The translations under genes were made by a program, and so were the position numbers. The notes beneath the pieces are model-generated. The model ran no database searches and was not told the origin of the DNA. It saw only the letters and a program-made list of their open reading frames with translations. A stretch of DNA of 64,000 nucleotides from Naegleria gruberi (taxonomy: Eukaryota): assembly GCA_000004985.1 (NCBI GenBank), contig GG738848.1; one strand, 5' to 3'. This document shows, in pieces, positions 139-15,426 of this stretch (the first letter of the stretch is position 1; each line of letters opens with the position of its first letter).

Positions 139-2097
139 TTAAGGAAGTGAACGAATCAATTCTTCTCTATTTACATTATATTGAGGGAATTCCTTATTTT
201 CCTCTCTGACGAATTGATCAGTAGCAGTTGAACTTGCATACAAATTTGGAGTTGGTTCATTAATTGCACTTTCCATTCTATTCGATTCTTCTTCAATCAA
301 ATCTGAAACATTTTCAGAAATTCCTTCAACTCTCTCAACAAATTCCAACTTTAATTCCTCACCCAAACTAGACAATGGTCCAGCACCTATCATCAAGTGT
401 GCAAATTCTCCCAAACCAACCTTTTCTTTCATTTGATATTCTTCTGGCAATTTAACTAAATATTTCGAAAGTAAATGAACAATGAAAACTTTCTGTTCGA
501 GAATGGAAAATTTGGAACCGAGACAACTTCTAGCTCCCAAACCGAATGGAAGGAAGGAGCATATTGGATGGTGACTTGAAACGTTTTCTTCTTCATGTCT
601 TTCAGTACTGCTATAATTGGCAAATCTTTCAGGATAGAATTCGTCTGATTTCTCACCCCAAAGTTCAGTATTGTAATGAATGGATTTGATAGAGAGGGCA
701 ATAGATTGGTCCTTTGAGATCTTTACTCCATCAATAATGTGAGACTTTTTGGAAACTCTATTTAACACGCCAACTGGAGGTGAAATTCTCAAATTTTCAT
801 TAATGACACAATCTAAATATGGAAGTTTGTGAAGAGTTGCCAAATCATCTAATTGTTGAATGATAAATTCACAATATTTTCCTTCTCTAATCTTGAATCG
901 ATCTGGATAGGCCTCTTTCAATTCCTTATATAGAGTGTCTTGAACTCTTTCATTCAATGCCAAATTAAGTAAAAGGAATGAAAGTGCATCTGCTGTGGTA
1001 GCATGTCCAGCAAGGAATAAAAGTAAAGTATTGTCTTTCAAGTTCTTGTCAGAGATTTTCAATGGTTCAACTTGTTCTTCTTCCTCTTCGTGAGCTGGCT
1101 CAAAGTTTGATGGGATGGCAGGTTTAGTTTCGCTTGGTTTAGGTTCATGGAATGCTTGGTTAGCTTCAATCATTAAATCCATGGCACTTTCCATGCTAGG
1201 ATGGACTACATCAATGACTCTTCTATCAACATGTTCGATTCTCTTCTTTTCAATGATGGAAGAAACAAATTCGTGCATAATTCGAATAGATTTTTCCATT
1301 CTGTGATTGTCAATAATTGGCAAGCTGGAATAAAGTTTACCACCGAGCATTCTTTCCCAACTATTGATATTCTTAAATACGAATCTGAATGCTTGAAGAA
1401 CTTTCTCATTTTGGGACGAATCTTGTGATTGACTTGTATCTGAAAGACGGAAATTTGGATCAAGATAATTAAAATCACAATCAAGAGCTGATTCACCAAT
1501 TACATCGAGTGCCATTCTACTGATAACATCTTTAATCTTGAGAGGAAACTTATTCTCAGATTGACCTTCTTTCGAATACTGTTGCAAATTAGAAACACAA
1601 TAATTGACCTTTTCTGAAAAGATATTCCAATACTTGTCTACATGTTGGAATGGAGGATTCAAAACACTTCTATTCACTTTCCATTCAGTGCCATTCATGA
1701 AAACTAAACTCTTTCCAATAAATTCTTCTTGCTGTGGAGTCCTTAATTTGCCATCCTTTGGAAAATCTTTCCAATTATCAATGAGAATGGATTTGGCAGC
1801 ATGTGCACTCGAGAATACAACAATTGGCATGTATCCTCTATAGAAAAAGACGAAAGGTTCATTATTAAACTTGTTTCTACTCAATTCGAATAGTTTTTCA
1901 CCAAGTGGTTTCTTACTCTCATAGAAAATTAATTTGATAGATTGCCAGATGGATAAATGATTCTTGAGTGCTTTTCTCGTTCTTACATCTCTAACGTAGG
2001 CATAGCAAATAGCTTCATAGAATTTTACTAAAAATAGTACTGCTATTGGGAAGACCACAAACACATTAAATACTGTTGACCAATTGATAATCATCAT
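139..2097 (-). CDS. Cytochrome P450 monooxygenase (652 aa)
   Basis: Uninterrupted ORF with ATG at 2097 (verified) and TAA stop. N-terminal membrane anchor, I-helix AGHATTA, K-helix ENLR, heme-binding FLPFGLGARSCLG (FxxGxRxCxG). There is an acidic insert before the I-helix and a ~60-aa acidic C-terminal tail. Confidence 0.85.
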   Translation of the reverse strand: MMIINWSTVFNVFVVFPIAVLFLVKFYEAICYAYVRDVRTRKALKNHLSIWQSIKLIFYESKKPLGEKLFELSRNKFNNEPFVFFYRGYMPIVVFSSAHAAKSILIDNWKDFPKDGKLRTPQQEEFIGKSLVFMNGTEWKVNRSVLNPPFQHVDKYWNIFSEKVNYCVSNLQQYSKEGQSENKFPLKIKDVISRMALDVIGESALDCDFNYLDPNFRLSDTSQSQDSSQNEKVLQAFRFVFKNINSWERMLGGKLYSSLPIIDNHRMEKSIRIMHEFVSSIIEKKRIEHVDRRVIDVVHPSMESAMDLMIEANQAFHEPKPSETKPAIPSNFEPAHEEEEEQVEPLKISDKNLKDNTLLLFLAGHATTADALSFLLLNLALNERVQDTLYKELKEAYPDRFKIREGKYCEFIIQQLDDLATLHKLPYLDCVINENLRISPPVGVLNRVSKKSHIIDGVKISKDQSIALSIKSIHYNTELWGEKSDEFYPERFANYSSTERHEEENVSSHHPICSFLPFGLGARSCLGSKFSILEQKVFIVHLLSKYLVKLPEEYQMKEKVGLGEFAHLMIGAGPLSSLGEELKLEFVERVEGISENVSDLIEEESNRMESAINEPTPNLYASSTATDQFVREENKEFPQYNVNREELIRSLP

Positions 2098-2973: not shown

Positions 2974-5900
2974 CTAGAGTCGTAATGAATCTTCATCATC
3001 GACTCGTTCTGCATTTTCAGAATGTTCTGAGGGTTCTGATTCGAGCATTCCCATTTCCATTCTCATGTTTTTCACGAGCATTGTTTCATCTTCTTCATTG
3101 AGGCGTGCTCTCAAGTGGTACATGTCATTGAGTAGGTAACCAAGCATGGATCCTTTTCCTTTAACTTCAAGCTTTCGTTCCTCAAATTCCATTTGTAAAT
3201 GTTTAACTCTTTCGTAGGTTGATTGTGATACTTGAATTCTTCCCTCCTCTGAATTTGATTCCATTCTTGAAGCAACATTGATGGTATCTCCCCATAGATC
3301 GAATGCAAACTTTTTGAAACCAATTACACCACCAACAACTTGACCAGTATTGATACCAATTCTGATTCATAATTGAAATTAATGAACAGTAATAAGAAAA
3401 CTAATAATTATTAACAAACTACTTACCTAACATTCAATTGTTGAGTAGAAATTGGTTTTGGATCATCTCTGCAAAATATTTGAAGAGCTTCTTTGTATCG
3501 ATTTGTGTTAATGTCTCTCACCACTGAGAAAGTTTCCATAGCAAATTGGAGAACAACTTCTGGGTGAGTCACTCCTCCATCCAATCCACCACAACAAAAG
3601 TAAGAATCACCTATAGTTTTGATCTTTTCTATATTGTACTTTTCAGTCAACTTATCAAATCCGTTCACAACATTTCCAAGTAACAAGACAACGTCTTGAG
3701 GGTTGAGAATAGAAGAAATTTCTGTAAATCCAATCATGTCCGTAAATAAACAAGTAATGTCAGGAAGCTTCTCTGCAATAAATGTTTCTCCCTAGTATTA
3801 TTATTATTATTATTAAATATTGAAAAACTAGTATAACAACTTACATTCATCAATCTTTGGGCAATCTTGGTTGGGAGAATATTTCTCAATAAATTTTCAG
3901 AAGTCTTTTTTTCTTCAGCAAGTGCAATTGCTTGCTTTCTCTCAAGTGTTATATCCTTAATGATAAATAAAAAAAAAACTTTCGAATCAATCATGGCCCA
4001 CGATATATTCACTTTGGCTGGAAAACATGATCCATTCTTCTTCACACAATCCAATTCTAAAGTTTCTCCTCTGATTGTAGTACTGGCTGTTATAGAAGTC
4101 ATGGCTTCAAAGATATTGCCAAGCTTTTCCTGACTTGCCGTATCAAATAAATTGAAAACAGACAAACCAACAACGTCATTGACATTTCTCAAGAATAAAA
4201 GTCTTGCTGCAGGGTTGTAAATCTCAATATCAAAATCACTGTTGCAGTACAACACTCCATCTACTGCAGTGTTGAAAATACTCTTTACCTTATCCTTTTC
4301 TTCTTCTTTTTGTTGTTGACTGCTCTTATTCTTCTTACTCTTATTTATCTGATTGTAGAGAACGAAGTCACGAATTTCATCTTTGGCATCCAAATATTCA
4401 ACTTTAACATAGTTCAACATCATTCTCAAAGTTTGAAATTCATTAAAGTGAGCATCAAGTGATAGGAACAATAAATATGCAGTGAATGGAATTGTTAGTA
4501 AACCAAGAACTCCAAATATAATGCTAACCAGAGACGACGTATTGTTTTGAAGTGCCTCAATATAAATATTCAAAAATATTTCAATATCATCAGTAAGCTG
4601 GCTACAAATTGAGTATATTCCTGTGTAAAATTCACTAAATGTTTTGAGAGGGTCTACTGTAGTTGTTCCAAATACTTGATTAACTATTGACAACTCAACC
4701 AAGAACAAATTCACCATATCATTCAAACTGGAACAGGCTGCATGAGAAGTTGAGGTTCTATTGGAGCAGTTTCCAGTACCGCTTATAATTTCATCAACCT
4801 CAGAAAACATGCCTATGAGTGGTTTTTCACCATTTTCCTTGTCTCCATATATCAGCTTGTTCCACAACACATTCAAATTCAACCCAATCTCACCAATGCC
4901 ATCGTGCAGTTTTACAAGATCTGCATTGGAAAGTAGTGCAGGGTTGTTTGCAGTGGTATTCGGAAGTAACTTGAATGTTATCAATTCCCCAATACTAAAC
5001 ACTCCTTTCTGTGCATAATTTGAAATTTTTACAGACTTGGCAATACTCTTCATAATTAATTCTGATTCTGAAGAAGTGCTGAAAGCCTCCAGGTAAAAAA
5101 TAGATACACAGAGTGCGGATAAAGCTATCAATAATATAGAGAGGAATGTGAAAGTATAGGATGGATTGCTAAGGTAATCAGATATTGAGCTGCCACTGTC
5201 GACTGATTCTTGATTTTTGGTTGTCAATTGTTGGTAGAGTTTGATAATAACATCTTTTGGAATGTTCCTCTCCACCAGTTTGATTGCTTGTTTAAGTGAA
5301 CGCACAACTACGAAAAACATAACAATAGAAAATGCAAACACCATTAACATTGCAATCAGGCAAGATATGTAGAAATATCTAAATATCAATTCCGTTTCAT
5401 AAACAGTGGCATAATTTCTATCAACAATGTGTAAGCAGTATTGTTGGTAATTTTGAAGAATGGTATCTCTATTGAGCCACAAGTACATGAACTTAAAGTT
5501 GGTAACTGTGGCATTAAACTCTTCAAGACCGTACTTTTTGAATTCTCTTGCTATTTGAATTAGAAGATTAGTGTTGAGGGCAATTGAGGAATTAGATACA
5601 TCTACACCAGTAAATTCGTCATTATTAGTATCTAAAATATGTGGAATGTTAAACGTATGGCTGTCTGAAGAATAATCATGGAAAATATCATTAGTAAAGG
5701 AGCCATCAAGAGCCATTTCCTCTAAAACTTTGAGACCGTGAATAACTTTGTCCAATCTTTCCTTGTGAATATGGTTGTAGCTAGTGTAGTTGTAAATTCC
5801 TTTTGCTTCCAAAGATAAAGTACTAAGTTTTGTGTTGCCATCAATAGTTGCCAAGACTTGAAACATTTGCTCTATTCTATTTTCAATCAATAAATATGAA

Positions 5901-8242
5901 ATATCAACACTAGGAAGACAATTAGCAATAATTGTAGGCATATCTTTTGTGGAAGCCACAAGAGCATAATATCCAAATCCAAAACAAGCAACAAATGTTA
6001 AAAAAGAAACTACTACAAATATCAGTACCACTATATACGTTGCCTTGTTATCCCCTGAGGTAGCCAAGGCCATTCTGAACAGACCCTCCTTCCTTACTTC
6101 TGGATCTTCTGAAGCTTCATTAATCAAGTTCAATATTTCAGGAGTCTCTTCCGTCATTTCTTTTGTGGTAGAGTTTTCTGCAGTAAGTTTGTTAGTGCTC
6201 TCCATGACAGACTTTCTAAATGATATGAGTTTTGATGCTGTTGACATGGAAGACAAGGGGCTTTTGGCATTAGAGGGAACAGTTGATGCTGGGCTTTTCA
6301 CTGGTGATGAGATGGTTCCTATTACTTTTCCTTCCTTCCTTTCTTCTTCATCTTCAATCTCATTGGCTTCTTGATACAACTCTTGAGCTCTGATATTGTT
6401 AAATATTACCAGTTCAAGAAATCGTGCATATAATCTTAGAACTGATTTATCGCCACCAAAATCTTTCATCAAATTCTCAAAGGTTATTTCTGACTCAACA
6501 GTTAGTTGGGTAATTCTTCTGTTGATTGTAATAACAGTACCAAAATTGACCATTTCATTGGTCATTTCCTTCCAAAGCGCTTTGTGCCAAGATAGGATTG
6601 TATGGTGTTGTCTTTCCAAGTTGGCTAAAATATGCTTCACATCCACAAAACTAATACCAGAACCTTCACCTGATTTTTTGTGCAGTAAGGTTTCCATTTC
6701 TTTCAATTTTTCTTTCAAAATAAATTCTGTTATAATATTGAGTTTGTGTCTCTTGATTTTCTTCAATAAAGCGAGAGAATATTCATAACAGTTGGTGCCT
6801 TCATTCCAGAAATAAGCGGTTGTCATTGCTGCAGCAACGATATTTTCAGGATAGGAGAAGGAACGATGTTGAGCCACTCCTTTGATGAATGAGATGCAAA
6901 TCTCATTGTCACTTAGACCCAAAGCATCATTTAAAAGTTTCGTCTTTCTACTTGATAATCTAAAGAAAATGTATAATTGTCTAATTCTTTTTTGATCTTC
7001 CAATTCCTTGAAGAAAGAGTAACTTTCTCTTTCAAATAAATGCCTCAATTCTGATATTTGTTCCTCGCTGGCAGTATATTCGACTCCATTTTCCAAAAGT
7101 TTTACCAATGAATTCTCCAAGCAACCAATGAAACCCCTCCTTATGGAATAATATGATACACCAAGATAAATGGTCATTGCTGCAAAACCAATAAAAAATC
7201 CAATTATTGCCAGTCCAATTGATGTACTAATCATTCCTAGTCCAATTTCTAAATCTTGTTTTTGATTAATGAAAGAGGAAATGAGAGGACCTAAACTTGT
7301 ACCAATTTTAGAAAAGACAATACCACTCATAAAACCATTCTCTGATAGAGAATAGTGAGGTATGAGGAAGAAAATAGATGGAACCAAAGTTGTAGAGAGA
7401 ACAATATGAACTATAGCCCTCACAAATACCATATCATTTGGAATAGCATACATGACAATTACTTGCAACTGAGATGTTGCCATAAAGTGAGCAATAAAGA
7501 ATGGACTCTCTGAAATGAATACAGATTTGCTTTTGAGATGGGTATTTGTAATGATGAGATTATACATTGCAGTTACTGGTACCAGTACAACTGCCATAAC
7601 AATACAAGTAACCAAAAGTGCAATATTAGTTGGTGAGTAGCACATTTTGGTTGGAAATCTAGAAAGAGCATACTGATCTATTGTGTATCCTTCAAAGAAC
7701 TTCTTTCCTGACACTCTATCACAATCCACAAATGATGTCAGCAAGTACGGTATTGTAAGATGACCAAAAAAGCAAGCAAAAGCAACAATCTTCAACAAGG
7801 TTCTAAAGGTTTTCATATTCCTACTAGCTGTCATGGCTGCCTTTGCAGTTGTAATAAACAAAACCAAAGCAGCAAGAATAAACACCATACAAACAACTGT
7901 TATTGCAATCATTGCCTCATACGTAATCAAATCTAAGGAAAAAGTAATTGGATAATTCAAAGCTTTTGAAATCCATAATCCATATTCTCCCCATCCATAA
8001 TCACCCATTACTGATATGCTAACGGCTCCATAACATGAATATAATACAACGAGCAAGTTGAGGATGAAATTCTTCCATGATTTCTGAGGTGCTTTGTCAG
8101 TCATGACAATTATTCTATTCAGCAAGGCATCCTTAACTTTGACAATATTCTGTCTCCTCGATAAATAACCTGAAGATGAGGAGGAGCTACTAGAATTATG
8201 AGAAGAACTCTGATAATCGGAGTGATGCCTAAAGTCAATCAT
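2974..8242 (-). CDS. Polytopic membrane protein with PAS domain and class III adenylyl/guanylyl cyclase catalytic domain (about 1720 aa; 3 exons: 8242..3845, 3791..3427, 3361..2974)
   Basis: ATG at 8242 verified, TAG stop at 2974. Exon 1 encodes roughly 10 TM helices, a long cytoplasmic region and a PAS-like fold just upstream of the cyclase. Two introns with GTAAGT donors and AG acceptors (3792..3844, 53 nt; 3362..3426, 65 nt). The spliced product reads LMN|GETFIAEKLPDITCLFTDMIGFTEI...KTIGDSYFCCGG...NV|R|IGINTGQVVGGVIGFKKFAFDLWGDTINVASRMES, the canonical cyclase metal-binding Asp, transition-state N/R and dimerisation motifs. Confidence 0.8.
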
Positions 8243-8730: not shown

Positions 8731-11700
8731 ATGTCATCCTCAAATCTTGCTGAAACTGATGCAGCAGCAAGTGACACATCAAAATCATCGTCATTAACAT
8801 CTAACCTCCTTCCTCTCCTGGACCAACTTTCTCAATATGCCCTCGATCTCTCACAAAACAAAATCTTTACCACCTCACTCTGTGATTACATTCAAAGTGC
8901 CTCACAACAAGTTTTCCTCTATGAAAAACTTGTTCAAACCAATCCAGATAATCCCTTCATTGCAACAATGAATTATTCCGATGTTCAACGTGTAGCCGAT
9001 GCCCTTCATGAGGCTTGCATCTACTTGATGGAAGTTCTCGGCAAGGATCCACAATTCTCTCGAAAGGAAGACGCTCAAAACGATTACATGTTTGAGCGGG
9101 AAGATCGTGAACAAGTGGGAATGATGAAGGTGCGTACCTTAAATATCATTGAAACGACGCGAAAAGCCAATACCAACTCGCTCAACGAGGTGCAAAAGAG
9201 AAAAAATTTACAGGCGCAACAAGTCTTTCAATTCGATTTGCACGCTCGTTTGTATAACTCAAAGAATGGTGTTGTTCAACCTGAGGAATTGACCAATGAT
9301 TCGAGAACATTCCACACCATCGGAAATGAAAATAGTGGAGGAAGAGATTCATTGATGAAAAAATTGTTTCACGTCTTGAATAATCAAATTGCTCAACAGA
9401 AGGAACATCAGGCTCAACAACAAGCTTTGGCTGAGAAGGGAAAGGCTGTTATTAGTGCAGCTGATAGTTTGGCTAGAAATTCTGCTCAGAGATTAAAGGT
9501 TATTCTTGTGAATGGTGTTACTGGTGTTGGTAAAAGTAATTTCTGTAATACCATTTGTAGAGAATTATGTGATCAAAATCCTGATACCATTCAAAGAAAA
9601 TTCCATTTGAGATTGAGAGCAAATACTAAATTTTCTCTCACTGTAAGTTTTCAAAGATATTCACAAGTTTTAAATTTATTCTATTTCTAATAACTATTGT
9701 ACTTAACTGATAATGAACTGATTGGATAATTTATTGAATTGTAATAATACTATTTTGGAATTTTTCAAAAATTAGACAACAGAAGCCATGCAATATGTTG
9801 TTCAAACATGGCACGTTGGACCATTGCCAATTCATGAAAAACAACTTCGTGAATTGTATCAACAATCTTTTATTGGTGTGACAACAATTCTCTATTTGGA
9901 AGATCCAAGTAATATCCATCAAATTTTGGCTCTCTTACCAAATATTAAATATTCTCCATCCAGTCGTGCATTTGTTGTCATTAGTTCTAGATCACAATTG
10001 AAATTGGAATTTGATAGATTCTCAAAGGGTTATATTGACCTTGTAACTGACTCTGGTGTCAAACAAATTAGAGATAGAATTGTTGAGCTCGATACTGCCA
10101 ATACTGAAGGTAGTATTGCTGCTGATCAACATGATTTGGATAATTTTTCTGATCACGAATCTGACTTTGAAAGTGATGATGAAAGTAGTGGAGAAAGTGA
10201 TGAGGAAGAAAAGCCAACCAAAGCAGGTAAAAATGACAAGTATCACATTAAAAAGACTCCACAACAGAAAAAGATGGAAAAGGAACTCAAATCAATCTTT
10301 GGTAGTACCAAGAAGAAGACATTTGCCATTCACATTGGTATCAAGGATGACGATGAAAAAATTCCAGTCTTCCAAAGACACTTTGATGTTATTTATTGTA
10401 CATTGGAACCACTAAGTTTTGATGGAGGTGCTGAAATGATGCAACACCTCAACCCACAACTCCAAAGTGACGAGACAAGATCTGTCTCTGCTTTGGCTGA
10501 AAATTTACCAATATTTATCAAAGTTCTCACCAGATCTCAAATGCTCTATGGGGGTGACCTGTCTGATTACTCATTTGCTATTGGTTCATTCATGGATAAG
10601 TATGGCAACACTGATTTCCCACAATTGAGAAAACTTTGTCAAGGTTTCTTTATTGGTATCTGTGAAAAGTGGGACAAACAACTCAGAAATTTTGCACTCA
10701 AACTCTCAATCTTCCCATTCTCTTTTGATGCTGTCAGTGTTGGACTCGTATTGGAAACTCCTCTCAATGAAACATTACGCTACCTCCAATATTTGATCTT
10801 CTTTGGTTTGATTGTTCAGTGTGAACCTGGTAGATTTAGTATGCATGACTTGGTCAGAGATACCTTCCAAATTTACAAGGATGAAGAAATGAGCGATAGA
10901 GATCCACTTAAGAATGATATTGCCGAATGTGAGGAAAGATATGTCCAACACTATTTCAACTTGTTGAGATTATACAATATGCAACATGAATACTCTGGTA
11001 TTATTTACATGCCTGGTCCTGAAAGGTATGACATGGATATTGAAAATATGAAATATGTTGTTGAATTTTTGAAAGATTTGGGCAATACTGACTATGTTGA
11101 TGCTCTTAACACTGGTAGATATATTTTCAGAAATTCAATCTATGCTATTGATAGAGGTCGTCTCTACACATTCCTTGAGAGCAGTGCCGCAGTCGATAAA
11201 CTCCCTGATGATTTTGGAAAGGCCAACTTTTTCGAAGGTTTTGCCATGATTTACTTTGATTTGATGGATCACAAGAATGCCTACATTAAGGCAAAGAAGG
11301 CCCTCGATTTATTAGAGAATGCTTGTATTTTGAGTGATGTACCAAGTGACGAACTCAAACAATTACCAGTACTTCTTCTTGCTGGTGAAATTGCCTTTAG
11401 ACAAAATCAACAAGATATTGCTCTCAGATTCTTTGAAAAGATGGTTACTCTTGCCAATAAGTATGCTCACGACTGGCAAAAGATTACAGTGGAAAAGAGT
11501 AGTGATCCGTTTGCTATCGTACAAGGTTTTGAGGAAAATGAAGTAATTGTCAAGGATATTTTTATTGGAAAGTCTTATATTTGCCAAGCCAAGATTTACA
11601 TGCAAAGAGGTGATGTCAAGAATGGTAAAAAGTTCTTTGAAAGAGGTCTCACCATTATGCAACGTATTTACCATCGTTACCATCCATTTATCAGTGATGC

Positions 11701-13093
11701 TTTTGCTTCCTATGCTCAACTTCTTCGTGATTTCAAATCAAGTCAGTACTATGAAGACATTTGCAAGTACTATAAGGATGCTATTGAAATTGATACCAAG
11801 ATTTTTGGTGAAGATTCATTCTCTGTTTGTGAAAAGTTGGATGGCTATGCTGTTGCTCTCTTGATGCAAAACAATTACGAAGCTGCCGAACCAATTTTCC
11901 AAAAGACCCTCATTACTAGAAAGAGGTTCTTTGGTGAGAATGACATTACTGTCAGTTCAACCCATAACAACTTGGCTGTCTGTTTAAAGCACTTGAGAAA
12001 GGCCGATGAAGCCAAGATTCATTATGAAGCCTCTCTCAATATTTTGACTGACTTGTTTGGTCCAAATGACTCTAGAGTTGCTACTATCAAGACCAATGTT
12101 GCCAAACTAAAGTTGGAATTCTCAGAATCATATGAAGACGCTGAAAAGACTTTCCAAGAAGCTCTTGAAACATTGAAAGATGAGAATATCCATGAAAAGG
12201 GACGTCAAATGGCCAGTACATTGAACAGTTTGGGTGATGCTTCTCGTCAAAGGCAAGACTATACAAAGGCTCTCGAATACTATGAACAAGCTATGGCTAT
12301 ATTGGAAGAAGTTAAAAAGAAGGCCAATACTGAGAGTACTGAATATTCTGAAGTTATTTCTGAGAGTGTGAAAATTCTCCTCAGTATGTCCAACTTGCAC
12401 TACGACAAACAAGAGTACAAACAAGCTGAAGAATTATTGGAACGTGGTTTGGAAATTATTCAGAAACATCTTGGTGGCGAGAACCATCCTCTCTATCCAA
12501 ACTATCTCAGTTTGGCAGCCAATACCAAACTTAACAAGAAGGATTATTCAGGCGCTGAAGAATACTATCATAAGGTTATTGAAATGAAGATTAAGCAAAA
12601 GTTACCTCCAACAGGTATTATGCCAACAAATCAATCTTTGGCTGTCTGTTTGGATCGTCAAGGTAAATATGCTGAAGCTATTGAACAATACCAAAAGGTC
12701 TTGAACATTCTCAATGAAAGCTTTAAGGATGATTTGGATAAGCAAATCTCAGTCATTAGAGCTATTGCAAGTGCCAGTACAAAGAAGGAACCAAAGGATT
12801 TTGCTACTGCTGAAAAGTACTTTGCCGATGTTGAAAAGTTAATTGTTAAAAAGACTGGCTCTGACAATAATATTGAATATGGTGAAATTATGAGTGATTT
12901 GGGAGCTTGTAGAATTCAATTACAAAAGTATGAAGATGCCATTCTGAACTTTGCAACCTGTGAAAGAATCTTTTCTGAATTCTTTGGAGACAATCATGAC
13001 AAGACCATTACTGCCAGAGAAAATGTTCAAAACTTGAGAACTCTTATGCAACAACAAAACATCAAGCAAGGATGCCCATGTACATTAATGTAA
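8731..13093 (+). CDS. NB-ARC/STAND P-loop NTPase with C-terminal TPR array (NLR-like; about 1409 aa; exons 8731..9642 and 9776..13093)
   Basis: ATG at 8731 verified. Exon 1 ends in phase 0 at ...FSLT|gtaagt. A 133-nt intron leads to acceptor attag|ACAACAGAAGCC, in frame with ORF 9788. Motifs: P-loop KVILVNGVTGVGKSNF, Walker-B-like TTILYLEDP, TTR-like FVVISSRS, MHD motif GRFSMHDLVRD, then repeated kinesin-light-chain-type TPRs (e.g. NLAVCLKHLRKADEAKIHYEASLNI). The ~250-aa N-terminal domain is of unknown type. C-terminus is ...QGCPCTLM, a CaaX-like box. Confidence 0.8.
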
Positions 13094-13397: not shown

Positions 13398-15426
13398 ATG
13401 TTCAAGAAGATCAACACTCCACAACTCATCAACAAGACCGCTTCCACTGGTGCTCGTTTGTTCTCTACCAAGATGAACAAGCAAAGTGTCAAGAAGGTAC
13501 CAATGATCATCAATGGTGAAAAGAGAATTTCCCAATCCAAGGAATGGTACGAAATTCACAATCCAGCCACCAATGAAGTCATTGCTATGGTCCCACAATC
13601 AACTGATGCTGAAATGGCTGAAGCTGTTCAAAACTCAAAGCAAGCCTTTGGTGAATGGAGAGATTGGAGTGTTTCTCGTAGAGTTAGAGTCTTGTACAAA
13701 CTCAGACAAATGCTCGAAGATAATACTCAAGAATTGGCTCAAATGATCACTGAAGAACAAGGTAAAACTTTGAAGGATGCTGAAGGAGACATTTTCCGTG
13801 GTATTGAAGTTGTTGAACATGCCTGCAATATGTCTGTTCTCCAAATGGGTGATACTACTGAAAACATTGCCAAGCACATTGATATTTACAGTTATAAGCA
13901 ACCTTTGGGTGTTACTGCTGGTATTTGTCCATTCAACTTCCCGTAAGTGTTTTTATTCACCATGTGTTTTAATTCTTATTCTAATATCCAATGATGATGA
14001 TGATTTGTAAATTTTAAATTATTATAATTTAACGAATTGATGATGATCAAATATGCATTATGCAAACAATTAAAATGCATTATCAAATAATGATCTATCT
14101 GATGATGATCCTATTTCTATTTGGCTTGTTTGGTGATTCTTTCCCTTCATCATCATGACCAAATATATTTTCATCATGATGCTAACCGACAAAATATTGG
14201 ACCGATAATATTATCTCCTTGATGATTCACACTATTATCTATATTTGTGTATAATTATTATCCATCCAACAAACAATTATTTGTTGTTAAATAATAATAA
14301 TTTTAACACACACTTGTTGATCAACAACAAATTCACACAACAATCAATATCATCATCATCCTGCTTGTGAATACATAATAATAGAGCCATGATTCCATTG
14401 TGGATGTTCCCAATGGCTGTTGCTACTGGTAATACTATGGTTTTGAAGCCATCTGAACGTGACCCAACTACTGGTGTCAGAATTGTTGAAATGGCTTTGG
14501 AAGCTGGTTTGCCAAAGGGTGTTGTCAACGTTATTCATGGTAAGAAGCAAACTGTTGACTTTATCTGTGATGCTCCAGATATCAAGGCCATCTCATTCGT
14601 TGGTGGTAACACTGCTGGTGAATACATTTATGCTCGTGGTACTGGTAATGGTAAACGTGTCCAAGCTAACTTGGGTGCCAAGAATCATGCTGTCGTTTTG
14701 CCAGATGCTAGAAAGGAAGATACTATTAATGCCTTGTGTGGTGCTGCTTTTGGCGCTGCTGGTCAAAGATGTATGGCTTTAACTACTGCCATTTTGGTTG
14801 GTGAAGCTAAGGCATGGCTTCCAGAAATTGTTGCCAAGGCCAAGACTTATAAGGTTAATGTTGGTTCTGATCCAACTGCTGATGTTGGTCCATTGATTTC
14901 ACCTCAATCCAAGACTCGTGTTGAAAGCTTGATTGCTTCTGCTCAAAAGGAAGGTGCCAAGATTGATTTGGATGGTCGTGGTGTCGTTGTTAAGGGTTAT
15001 GAAACTGGTAACTTTGTTGGTCCAACCATCATTTCAGGTGTTAAGAATGTTCACACTTGTTATAAGGAAGAAATCTTTGGTCCAGTTATGCTCATCATGA
15101 CTGCTGAAAATTTGGATGAAGCTATTCAAATTATCAACTCTAATCCATACGGTAATGGTACTGCCATCTTTACTAGATCTGGTCCAGCTGCTCGTAAATT
15201 CCAATTCGAAGTTGATGCTGGTCAAATTGGTATTAACTTGCCAATTCCAGTTCCTCCACCATTCTTCTCATTCACTGGTTCAAGAGCTTCAATTAGAGGT
15301 GATTTGAACTTCTATGGTAAGGGTGCTGTTCAATTCTACACTCAAACTAAGACTATCATGTCTAACTGGAGAGAAGATGAAAGTGGTATGAGCTTTGGTA
15401 CTGTCATGCCAACTTATAAGAAGTAA
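13398..15426 (+). CDS. Methylmalonate-semialdehyde dehydrogenase (ALDH6 family), mitochondrial; exons 13398..13942 and 14385..15426
   Basis: ATG verified. mTP-like N-terminus. Exon 1 ends ...GICPFNFP with donor gtaagtg (phase 2); acceptor aataatag|AGCCATGATTCC restores ...[15 protein letters not shown] motifs throughout; C-terminus [20 protein letters not shown] is typical of MMSDH. TAA stop. Confidence 0.9.
13943..14384 (+). other. Unusually long (442-nt) intron of the MMSDH gene, rich in TGATGA/TCATCA motifs in both orientations
   Basis: GT...AG bounded. Repeated aatgatgatgatgat / ttgatgatgatc / ctgatgatgatcc / cttcatcatcatgacc / atcatcatcatcc units. Every other intron in the window is 43-176 nt. 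Confidence 0.6.

Follow-up and report, generated by a model that had tools for sequence, protein, structure and literature searches.

The analysed window is a stretch of 64,000 nucleotides from contig GG738848.1 of Naegleria gruberi, and all positions given here are on its plus strand. At 8731..13093, we find a two-exon gene whose exons join in frame to encode a single protein of 1409 aa. Two ORFs are present in this region (8731..9690 and 9788..13093), and a splice from GTAAGT at 9643 to TAG at 9775 fuses them in frame with the junction ...KFSLT/TTEAMQ.... Exon 1 (8731..9642) encodes residues 1-304, comprising the N-terminal domain, a linker and the P-loop, and this part is 69% identical to the N. 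fowleri protein FDP41_009508. Removal of the intron (9643..9775, 133 nt, GTAAGT...TTAG) restores the frame, and exon 2 (9776..13093) continues without interruption through residues 305-1409 to a TAA stop at 13091-13093. Exon 2 is collinear with three family members (P0001, P0002 and P0003) and shows no gaps that hint at more introns.

The splice had been proposed in an earlier note on this DNA and is borne out by comparison with relatives. The junction peptide is found in the proteins of N. fowleri and Willaertia, and the intron-less bacterial homologues have no break across the exon junction. Furthermore, an orthologue on a metagenome contig (L002) carries a 41-nt intron (GTATGT..TATAG) of unrelated sequence at exactly the same codon boundary, and two gene-caller products (P0004 and P0010) leave exon 1 at the same codon and continue into intron sequence. 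Two separate genes, or a locus that stems from bacterial contamination or was recently transferred, can practically be dismissed: prokaryote-style gene callers do report the orthologue as two products (P0004 and P0003), but one and the same nucleotide-binding domain (NBD) spans both exons, with its P-loop in exon 1 and its remainder in exon 2, the full-length proteins of N. fowleri, Willaertia and Acrasis are as unbroken across the junction as the bacterial homologues, the L002 intron differs in length but not in position, the G+C content of the locus equals that of its flanks, and synteny with the downstream Aldedh gene is kept. Bacterial contamination was rejected since intron, composition and synteny are all contrary to it.

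The central part of the protein carries the motifs of an NB-ARC nucleotide-binding/oligomerisation domain (NOD). The P-loop, Walker-B, TTR-like and MHD motifs listed in the earlier note could all be read in the sequence and aligned to bacterial NB-ARC counterparts. The Walker A motif or P-loop GVTGVGKS (residues 262-269, 9514..9537) aligns with GMGGVGKT, and the Walker B motif TILYLEDP (341-348, 9884..9907) aligns with LLLLDNA/LLLLDDA; its pattern hhhh(E/D)D, here ILYLED at 342-347, is retained across the family. The RNBS-B or sensor-1 strand FVVISSRS (370-377, 9971..9994) aligns with lllvTSRq, and strand 5 with an RNBS-C-like segment, VIYCTLEPLSFDGGAEMM (509-526, 10388..10441), aligns with idLdtLseeeArkLl of bacterial NODs. 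The GLPL-like motif ENLPIFIKV (546-554, 10499..10525) aligns with CGyLPLALrl, but it is degenerate, with L-P alone kept. The winged-helix part (10703..10861) aligns with LsvFPasFd and rYrLHDLvr; it contains LSIFPFSFD (10703-10729) and the MHD motif RFSMHDLVRD (657-666, 10832-10861), in which His and Asp do not vary across the family. SSR (374-376), NLPIF (547-551) and MHD (660-662) occur in the same order as TSR, LPLAL and LHD in the relatives. The Walker A Lys, the Walker B acidic pair, the sensor-1 Arg and the MHD His and Asp are thus all retained.

When searching with single-domain models, this homology is not detected. Pfam NB-ARC matched neither the window protein nor its isolated NOD, be it with or without an internal insertion, and the best score within the family (16.3 bits, P0006) is below the PF00931 gathering threshold of 23.5. 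A search with the family profile across 1.84 billion proteins resulted in 147 matches at E<=1e-3. From P0014 on (an Anaerolineales MAG, E 2.9e-14), about 130 of these are bacterial-type proteins, and each of ten sampled proteins is recognised by Pfam NB-ARC and also has TPR_12 or another domain of the NLR type. Of 136 matches, 125 consist of two collinear stretches, one in the NBD and the other in ARC/WHD. Aligning the family NOD to the bacterial NODs with hhalign gave a probability of 99.7% (E 7.7e-27, 304 aligned columns), and the profile of the bacterial relatives in turn matches the structures of AfsR (1.1e-72) and Apaf-1 (2.3e-20) as well as ZAR1, Sr35, NRC and Roq1. The reverse score, of the bacterial NOD HMM against the window protein, is inflated because the bacterial set was chosen via the family profile.

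Other searches were less informative. The family profile of residues 1-712 had no match in the PDB (the best hit, at 0.65, is an unrelated enzyme), the whole-protein PDB sequence search matched TPR proteins only, and the PADLOC defence models gave nothing beyond a match at the level of the P-loop (15.8 bits). An AlphaFold2 model of the NOD, built from a 5-sequence alignment, reached a mean pLDDT of 35.6, which is too low to support the fold or the place of the insertion. The NB-ARC–TPR assignment of the earlier note thus holds by way of profiles, whereas a direct Pfam NB-ARC match is lacking. On sequence grounds, we assign the NOD, although it has diverged very far, to the NB-ARC (AP-ATPase) lineage, with a real but remote relationship and AfsR-type bacterial NB-ARC–TPR proteins as its nearest relatives.

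The NBD is interrupted by a family-specific insertion at about residues 383-511 (10010..10396). It comprises about 125 aa, which exceeds the acidic run, and the bacterial relatives are without it. The earlier note had correctly placed an acidic insertion inside the NOD, but had not captured this extent. The acidic tract DHESDFESDDESSGESDEEE (430-449, 10151-10210) is followed by a basic segment, KKTPQQKKMEKELKSIFGSTKKKT (10250-10321). In the alignment to the bacterial NOD HMM, about 129 residues of the window protein separate HMM position 153 from 158, and the same single gap recurs in the hhalign alignment and in the two-stretch pattern described above. The insertion is 70% identical to N. fowleri and 62% identical to Willaertia, which indicates that it is coding. 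A retained in-frame intron was considered as the origin of the acidic insertion and rejected, given this protein-level conservation across genera.

Upstream of the NOD lies a family-specific helical domain (residues 25-160, 8803..9210). It comprises about 140 aa and is a predicted helical bundle, with helices predicted at 26-38, 45-70, 82-104 and 126-156; its fold matches are non-specific only, and Pfam found no match in this domain of six family members. Its most conserved motif, DPQFSRKEDAQNDYMFERED (106-125, 9046..9105), is predicted to form the loop between helices 3 and 4, where pLDDT is low, and the core R-x3-QN-x-Y-x-F-E-R-E is retained from Naegleria to Acrasis and in the metagenomic members. 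The following linker or pre-P-loop region (161-250, 9211..9480) is conserved across the family and includes the conserved TFHTIGNENSGGR (193-205, 9307-9345). A few bacterial matches also cover profile positions 145-200, and, beyond about residue 170, the family profile can be aligned to the stretch before the P-loop in a few bacterial relatives. Because of this alignment, most of residues 161-250 probably belongs to the NOD. The region also resembles the F-x-G-R-x-x-E-L element before the bacterial P-loop, to which we infer that it corresponds. The unrecognised N-terminal domain of about 250 aa in the earlier note therefore remains without a Pfam match, but the unexplained part shrinks to about residues 25-160.

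Directly after the NOD follows a TPR array of the kinesin light chain (KLC) type at about residues 791-1395 (11234..13048). Pfam TPR_12 matches with 184.9 bits (2.7e-55) in 8 stretches and TPR_10 with 100.3 bits (3.8e-29) in 5 stretches, an ad hoc self-trained repeat HMM finds 9 TPR units, and the top PDB matches are the TPRs of kinesin light chains (KLC1/2, about 1e-15). The earlier count of at least eight KLC-type repeats agrees with these results.

The protein ends in GCPCTLM (13070..13090), with the CaaX box CTLM at 13079-13090, the stop next to it and a second Cys two residues upstream. The earlier note had read this tail as a CaaX box with a nearby Cys, and the box turns out to be conserved in all seven complete orthologues. 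From Naegleria to Acrasis, these end in CTLM, CLIL, CLIL, CIVM, CVIC, CSLM and CIIM; all have Cys at -4, an aliphatic residue at -2, the stop right after X and an extra upstream Cys. Among about 140 fetched proteins from outside the family, none has a Cys at -4. A hydrophobic TM-like segment is found nowhere in the family. The X residue of a CaaX box specifies FTase or GGTase-I, with X = Met being of the FTase type. One could suppose that the Cys-rich tail is not prenylated but S-acylated only, metal-binding or inert, and that the protein is soluble; several tail Cys could indeed take S-acylation or metal. We consider this quite improbable, as the Cys stays exactly at -4 and the aliphatic residue at -2 in 7/7 although the tail around the box is merely 14-50% identical among family members, X is M, L or C, as expected of a substrate of one of the two transferases, and neither metal binding nor S-acylation alone gives a reason for exact spacing.

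Animal NLRs that are S-acylated and plant NLRs that are N-acylated are known. The expectation of the earlier note that a lipid-anchored STAND NTPase would be unusual is too broad, since NPHP3 is N-myristoylated (PMC8246649), but a C-terminal CaaX box on an NB-ARC–TPR protein appears to be new: our literature search found no paper that combines CaaX with an NB-ARC, NACHT or STAND protein. A protein farnesyltransferase is encoded by N. fowleri, and an FTase inhibitor kills its trophozoites (PMC7560193). As the prenylation signal is kept in every relative found across Heterolobosea, tethering to a membrane is most likely, which would make this a kind of STAND protein undescribed in the searchable literature.

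Family members are annotated just as 'hypothetical' or 'TPR-like' (N. fowleri FDP41_009508, Willaertia ABK040_006712, Acrasis AKO1_013965), and the literature search found no paper that mentions their locus tags. Each of the named genomes contributes one family cluster. Thus, the gene apparently occurs once per genome, in Naegleria and Willaertia as well as in Acrasis, as far as a k-mer-prefiltered search and 50%-identity representatives reveal, which a distant paralogue in the same genome could escape. Compared to N. fowleri, the NBD is 88% identical, the TPRs 83% and the N-terminal domain 65%; neither a lineage-specific expansion nor a fast-evolving sensor is seen. The apparent single copy and the strong conservation of the TPRs speak against a diversifying immune receptor and for a conserved membrane-tethered switch.

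The spliced gene encodes a STAND NTPase with a divergent NB-ARC domain and KLC-type TPRs, and we consider it fairly probable that this protein acts as a lipid-anchored membrane switch. The CaaX Cys would be prenylated, with farnesyl here (X = Met) and geranylgeranyl in N. fowleri (X = Leu), and the neighbouring Cys would be S-acylated in the fashion of Ras/Rho tails. It follows from these two modifications that the lipidated tail would hold the end of the TPR array at the membrane. As in other NB-ARC proteins, the array may keep the ADP-bound NOD shut until a ligand binds. Nucleotide exchange would then allow the NOD to oligomerise on the membrane surface and cluster the N-terminal helical domains as output, which could recruit partners or act directly on the membrane. 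Given strong purifying selection on the TPRs and no sign of an expansion of paralogues, the signal would, in analogy to Apaf-1, more likely be a conserved endogenous or general cue than a pathogen molecule that varies.

Two other functions seem unlikely, one as much as the other. The protein might be a constitutive membrane scaffold or cargo adaptor, similar to NPHP3 or kinesin light chain, with the NTPase as a slow regulatory module only. Here, the lipid anchor would target a membrane domain, for instance the flagellar base in the flagellate stage, and the TPRs would bind conserved partners. The KLC type of the TPRs, the match to Pfam TPR_NPHP3 (60 bits in the window protein and 100.7 bits in P0006) and the role of NPHP3 as a lipidated ciliary binder of UNC119 (PMC8246649) are in line with a scaffold, and strong conservation and a single copy would suit a housekeeping role. 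However, the TPR_NPHP3 score of the window protein is under the cut-off of 100, NPHP3_N has no match, the start MSSS lacks Gly2, and every NB-ARC switch residue is kept, which favours a working switch. The family also occurs in Acrasis kona. Alternatively, the protein might be a classical innate-immune NLR or death executioner whose N-terminal bundle is a permeabiliser resembling CC, HeLo or MLKL-4HB, with a resistosome-like, lipid-anchored oligomer that forms after pathogen sensing and perforates or gates the membrane. The tripartite layout of N-terminal domain, NOD and C-terminal repeats is present; the apparent single copy and the conserved TPRs disfavour a diversifying receptor. 'NLR-like' should hence be read as a label of the architecture and an immune role as a candidate.

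More speculative still is a resistosome- or apoptosome-like switch for death or signalling across Heterolobosea, in which prenyl and acyl groups hold the inactive NB-ARC–TPR monomer at the membrane, a conserved cue triggers two-dimensional oligomerisation and the N-terminal bundle, of a kind new to science, inserts into or remodels this membrane. The NB-ARC–TPR core would, in such a protein, probably have been acquired from bacteria.

Switches of the NB-ARC and NLR type have a central part in the cell death and immunity of animals, plants, fungi and bacteria; for Discoba, to our knowledge, they are almost undescribed. The family described here has an NB-ARC domain that escapes Pfam, and it provides a clean case for the question whether eukaryotic NB-ARC–TPR proteins come from bacterial ones. 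If the CaaX box is used, it would be a STAND protein that is lipid-anchored at its sensor end. The membrane switch that we favour would then offer a simple case in nature for testing what membrane tethering does to NOD oligomerisation, and it would add one more prenylated protein to consider when reading the anti-Naegleria effect of farnesyltransferase inhibitors (PMC7560193).

Among known systems, the AfsR-type bacterial NB-ARC–TPR proteins (Streptomyces AfsR, PDB 8k60/8jke) have a homologous NOD with the TPR array directly after it. They share the order of the motifs: pre-P-loop element, P-loop, LT-x-x-EAM-x-x-VI, Walker B, TSR, GLPL, LSVFP and (M/L)HD. In contrast, the bacterial relatives lack the NBD insertion, the CaaX tail (none has Cys at -4) and the N-terminal domain of the family, and about 17% have TM-like segments instead of a lipid signal. 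In AfsR, a DNA-binding SARP domain takes the place of the N-terminal domain. The helical N-terminal domain of about 140 aa, the NBD insertion and the Cys-Cys/CaaX tail are three additions specific to the heterolobosean family.

Through a chain of profile matches, Apaf-1/CED-4 and the plant CC-NLRs (ZAR1, Sr35 and the NRCs) can be placed in the same NB-ARC superfamily, whereas the family profile has no direct match to their structures in the PDB. They follow a common three-part logic of N-terminal output domain, NOD and repeat sensor, and the window protein shares with Apaf-1 its conservation and apparent single copy. However, its own sensor consists of TPRs instead of WD40 or LRR repeats, its N-terminal domain is not recognisable as a CARD or CC, and its prenylation signal is absent from Apaf-1 and plant NLRs. 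Fungal NB-ARC–TPR NLR-like proteins (Podospora/Aspergillus, TPR_10/TPR_12) combine NB-ARC and KLC-type TPRs with swappable N-terminal domains, and form large variable families of paralogues with highly similar, hypervariable repeats. The window gene differs from these in being conserved and apparently single-copy and in carrying a CaaX tail.

NPHP3 is likewise a lipid-anchored P-loop protein of the STAND type with KLC-type TPRs. It is an N-myristoylated ciliary protein that binds UNC119 (PMC8246649), whereas the signal in the window protein is a predicted C-terminal prenyl and probable acyl site. Pfam found nothing in the window protein besides TPR models and weak P-loop matches, and orthology to NPHP3 was rejected as the defining domains, including the NPHP3_N NTPase domain, are absent. 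The tail itself shares the form ...C-x-C-a-a-X or CC-a-a-X at the extreme C-terminus with Ras/Rho proteins, and its X varies between M/C and L among orthologues as in Ras/Rho-type tails. Unlike in Ras/Rho, it has no polybasic stretch by the CaaX box and ends the TPR solenoid of a 1400-aa STAND protein.

Two ORFs were found on the + strand by the ORF scan (8731..9690, the exon 1 region, and 9788..13093, the exon 2 region), and removal of a 133-nt intron (donor GTAAGT at 9643, acceptor TAG ending at 9775) joins their frames. The spliced product has 1409 aa and reads ...KFSLT/TTEAMQ... at the junction. The whole window, gene included, is AT-rich (G+C about 34%). Reading the two ORFs as separate genes is refuted by four observations. 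The junction peptide SLTTTEAMQ is also found in proteins of N. fowleri and Willaertia; an orthologue on the metagenome contig L002 has an intron at the identical codon boundary (2026..2066 of ENA ERZ27315067 k141_1393206; 41 nt, GTATGT..TATAG); bacterial homologues run contiguously over the splice junction; and the order of the gene and a downstream aldehyde dehydrogenase (Aldedh) gene is kept in L002 and a second metagenome contig, L001. We thus conclude that 8731-13093 is one gene, as the earlier note had proposed. On L002, a prokaryote-style gene caller placed P0004, which comprises exon 1 and intron read-through, directly upstream of P0003, the exon 2 product. The 41-nt and 133-nt introns share no sequence similarity; between these related amoebae, the intron position is conserved whereas its length differs threefold. 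No part of the protein is encoded a second time within the 64 kb of the window.

The upstream neighbour is divergently oriented (3734..8242, - strand); its 1502-aa ORF matches the Pfam models TPR_TmcB and PAS_9 (60 and 61 bits) and passes at its end from 'LLRNILPTKIAQRL' into low-complexity sequence. This end looks like intron read-through at the point where the start of a class III cyclase domain would be expected; the neighbour probably has several exons and encodes a PAS-cyclase-type membrane protein. Downstream on the + strand, the Aldedh gene is split into two ORFs (13398..13946 and 14389..15426; 119 and 306 bits, profile positions 5-139 and 141-461), which implies that an intron (about 440 nt, about 13947..14388) separates them.

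Relatives of the window protein were searched with two approaches. A word-indexed search with residues 1-823 detected three: N. fowleri FDP41_009508 (P0001, 75% identity), Willaertia magna ABK040_006712 (P0002, 60% identity) and the metagenomic P0003 (1100 aa). These relatives place the window in a Naegleria-like heterolobosean distinct from N. fowleri, and a look-up gave no existing record for the window protein itself. An exhaustive profile search covering 1.84 billion representatives added Acrasis kona KAL0483714.1 (P0005), the eukaryotic contig protein P0006 and several fragments. P0006 is a distant member (about 33% identical, tail CCGGCSLM) without an intron at the Naegleria position; since the called product begins within the N-terminal domain, an upstream exon is probably missing. 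Its locus (L003 6001..9927; JGI 3300062347, Ga0606064_0328) lies on a 25-kb protist contig among typical eukaryotic genes, namely F-box, LRR, RCC1 and RabGAP-TBC. Identity to N. fowleri is 65% in the N-terminal domain, 88% in the nucleotide-binding part (NBD), 70% in an insertion within it, 73% in the ARC/winged-helix part (ARC/WHD) and 83% in the TPR array. With both searches, only one cluster was found per named genome, where distant paralogues could have escaped detection. Judged by these regional identities and the single cluster, the pattern is that of a conserved orthologue and not of a diversifying receptor family, with distant paralogues still possible.

The earlier note had assigned the nucleotide-binding/oligomerisation domain (NOD) to NB-ARC. 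Pfam NB-ARC is not matched directly by the whole protein, the NOD alone or the NOD minus its insertion, which gave only P-loop-level matches, and a PDB search with the family profile gave no match. The best direct Pfam NB-ARC score in the family is that of P0006 (16.3 bits), below the cut-off of 23.5. At the level of profiles, homology is found: searching with the family profile yields 147 proteins at E<=1e-3, with bacterial-type proteins beginning at P0014 (from an Anaerolineales MAG, E 2.9e-14). All ten sampled matches pass Pfam NB-ARC and most contain TPR_12, and in 125/136 the match consists of one block in the NBD and a second, collinear one in the ARC/winged-helix part. Aligning the heterolobosean NOD to ten bacterial NODs with hhalign gave a probability of 99.7% (E 7.7e-27, 304 aligned columns, 27% identity). 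The bacterial NOD profile in turn matches Streptomyces AfsR (1.1e-72) and Apaf-1 (2.3e-20), as well as ZAR1, Sr35, NRCs, Roq1 and the archaeal TPR-STAND protein PH0952. In the alignments, the window motifs correspond exactly to bacterial NB-ARC counterparts: GVTGVGKS to GMGGVGKT, LTTTEAMQYVVQTW to LTPAEAMAHVIRAF, ILYLEDP to LLLLDNA, VVISSR to LLVTSR, CTLEPLS to IDLDTLS, NLPIFIKV to YLPLALRL, LSIFPFSFD to LSVFPASFD and RFSMHDLVR to RYRLHDLVR. These profile matches and motif correspondences thus argue that the NOD is a genuine, very divergent NB-ARC domain with all switch residues kept. The structure model of the NOD is of low confidence (pLDDT 35.6) and lends the fold no support. Among the bacterial relatives, P0014 contains two NOD-TPR modules, and the N-terminal half of P0098 is KAP-NTPase-like.

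About 129 residues of the window protein separate the sensor-1 strand from strand 5, compared to 5 positions in the bacterial HMM, and hhalign places the same single gap there. A large acidic insertion had been noted before; the acidic run is indeed present, variable in sequence, preceded by a conserved NFSDHESDF and followed by a conserved basic block, KKTPQQKKMEKELKSIFGSTKKKT. Residues 396-505 (110 residues) include 27 Asp/Glu and 19 Lys/Arg. Since the insertion is conserved in N. fowleri and Willaertia (62% identity to the latter), and distant members also carry acidic-then-basic versions, it is coding and family-defining.

The N-terminal domain has no match in Pfam, PDB sequences or Foldseek, and the exhaustive profile search confines it to the family. 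Following the variable residues 1-24, four long helices are predicted in residues 25-160 (block pLDDT mostly 76-93; N-terminal model mean 67.7). The most conserved element, DP-x3-R-x3-QN-x-Y-x-FERE, lies in the loop after helix 3, and the most conserved stretch, DPQFSRKEDAQNDYMFERED (residues 106-125, 9046..9105), falls in a predicted low-confidence loop (pLDDT 46-71 in 111-130) and not in the helices; it could serve in binding or catalysis, or contact the NOD. From about residue 170, a few bacterial relatives extend the family-profile match into the pre-P-loop region; thus, residues 161-250 are probably for the most part a pre-P-loop extension of the NOD. The earlier description of an uncharacterised domain of about 250 aa therefore stands for the missing match to known domains but probably not for its length.

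At least eight KLC-type TPRs had been proposed, and we found TPR_12 in 8 stretches (2.7e-55), TPR_10 (3.8e-29) and, with a self-trained repeat HMM, 9 units from residue 841 to 1321. The best solved-structure matches of the array are kinesin light chains (about 1e-15).

The proposed CaaX box is kept in all complete family C-termini: ...GCPCTLM in the window protein, ...GCPCLIL in both N. fowleri and P0003, ...GCCCCIVM in Willaertia, ...KCCTGCVIC in Acrasis, ...KCCGGCSLM in P0006 and ...RCCIIM in the further member P0008. In all of them, position -4 is Cys, position -2 is aliphatic and the stop directly follows X; the remaining tail is only 14-50% identical. None of about 140 fetched non-family proteins has Cys at -4. 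By the established CaaX rule, M or C at X would point to farnesylation and L to geranylgeranylation; an extra Cys 1-5 residues upstream resembles Ras/Rho palmitoylation sites. TM-like segments are absent from the family, and 22/128 bacterial relatives carry one to four of them N-terminal of the NBD by Kyte-Doolittle (including P0018, P0026, P0088 and P0135). As this is a sixth of the bacterial relatives, membrane tethering of the NOD-TPR module may be older than the lipid tail of the eukaryotic proteins. N. fowleri has a farnesyltransferase gene, and lonafarnib kills this amoeba (PMC7560193).

For the window protein, the analysis establishes the architecture, the homology of the NOD, the intact switch motifs and the conserved CaaX/Cys tail. 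In the mechanism that we propose, prenylation and S-acylation would tether the TPR end to the membrane, the TPRs would autoinhibit and sense, nucleotide exchange would drive oligomerisation at the membrane, and the clustered N-terminal helical domains would give the output. Given the conservation, a conserved cue is the likelier trigger. As output, the protein might form pores or act on the membrane, as in a membrane-permeabilising immune or death NLR, or it might serve scaffolding and trafficking, as in a membrane scaffold or cargo adaptor.

Among known systems, acylated animal and plant NLRs exist. Our literature search found no paper on a CaaX-bearing NB-ARC, NACHT or STAND protein, and none that mentions the family locus tags. 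NPHP3 is a lipidated STAND protein that is N-myristoylated (PMC8246649); the window protein is not NPHP3, and its TPR_NPHP3 score (60 bits) falls short of the cut-off (100). By profile evidence, the window protein belongs to the NB-ARC lineage, though below the curated Pfam threshold, and it would work like an NB-ARC–TPR STAND switch, and its NB-ARC domain is nearer to that of bacterial NB-ARC–TPR proteins of the AfsR type than to those of Apaf-1 and the NLRs of plants.
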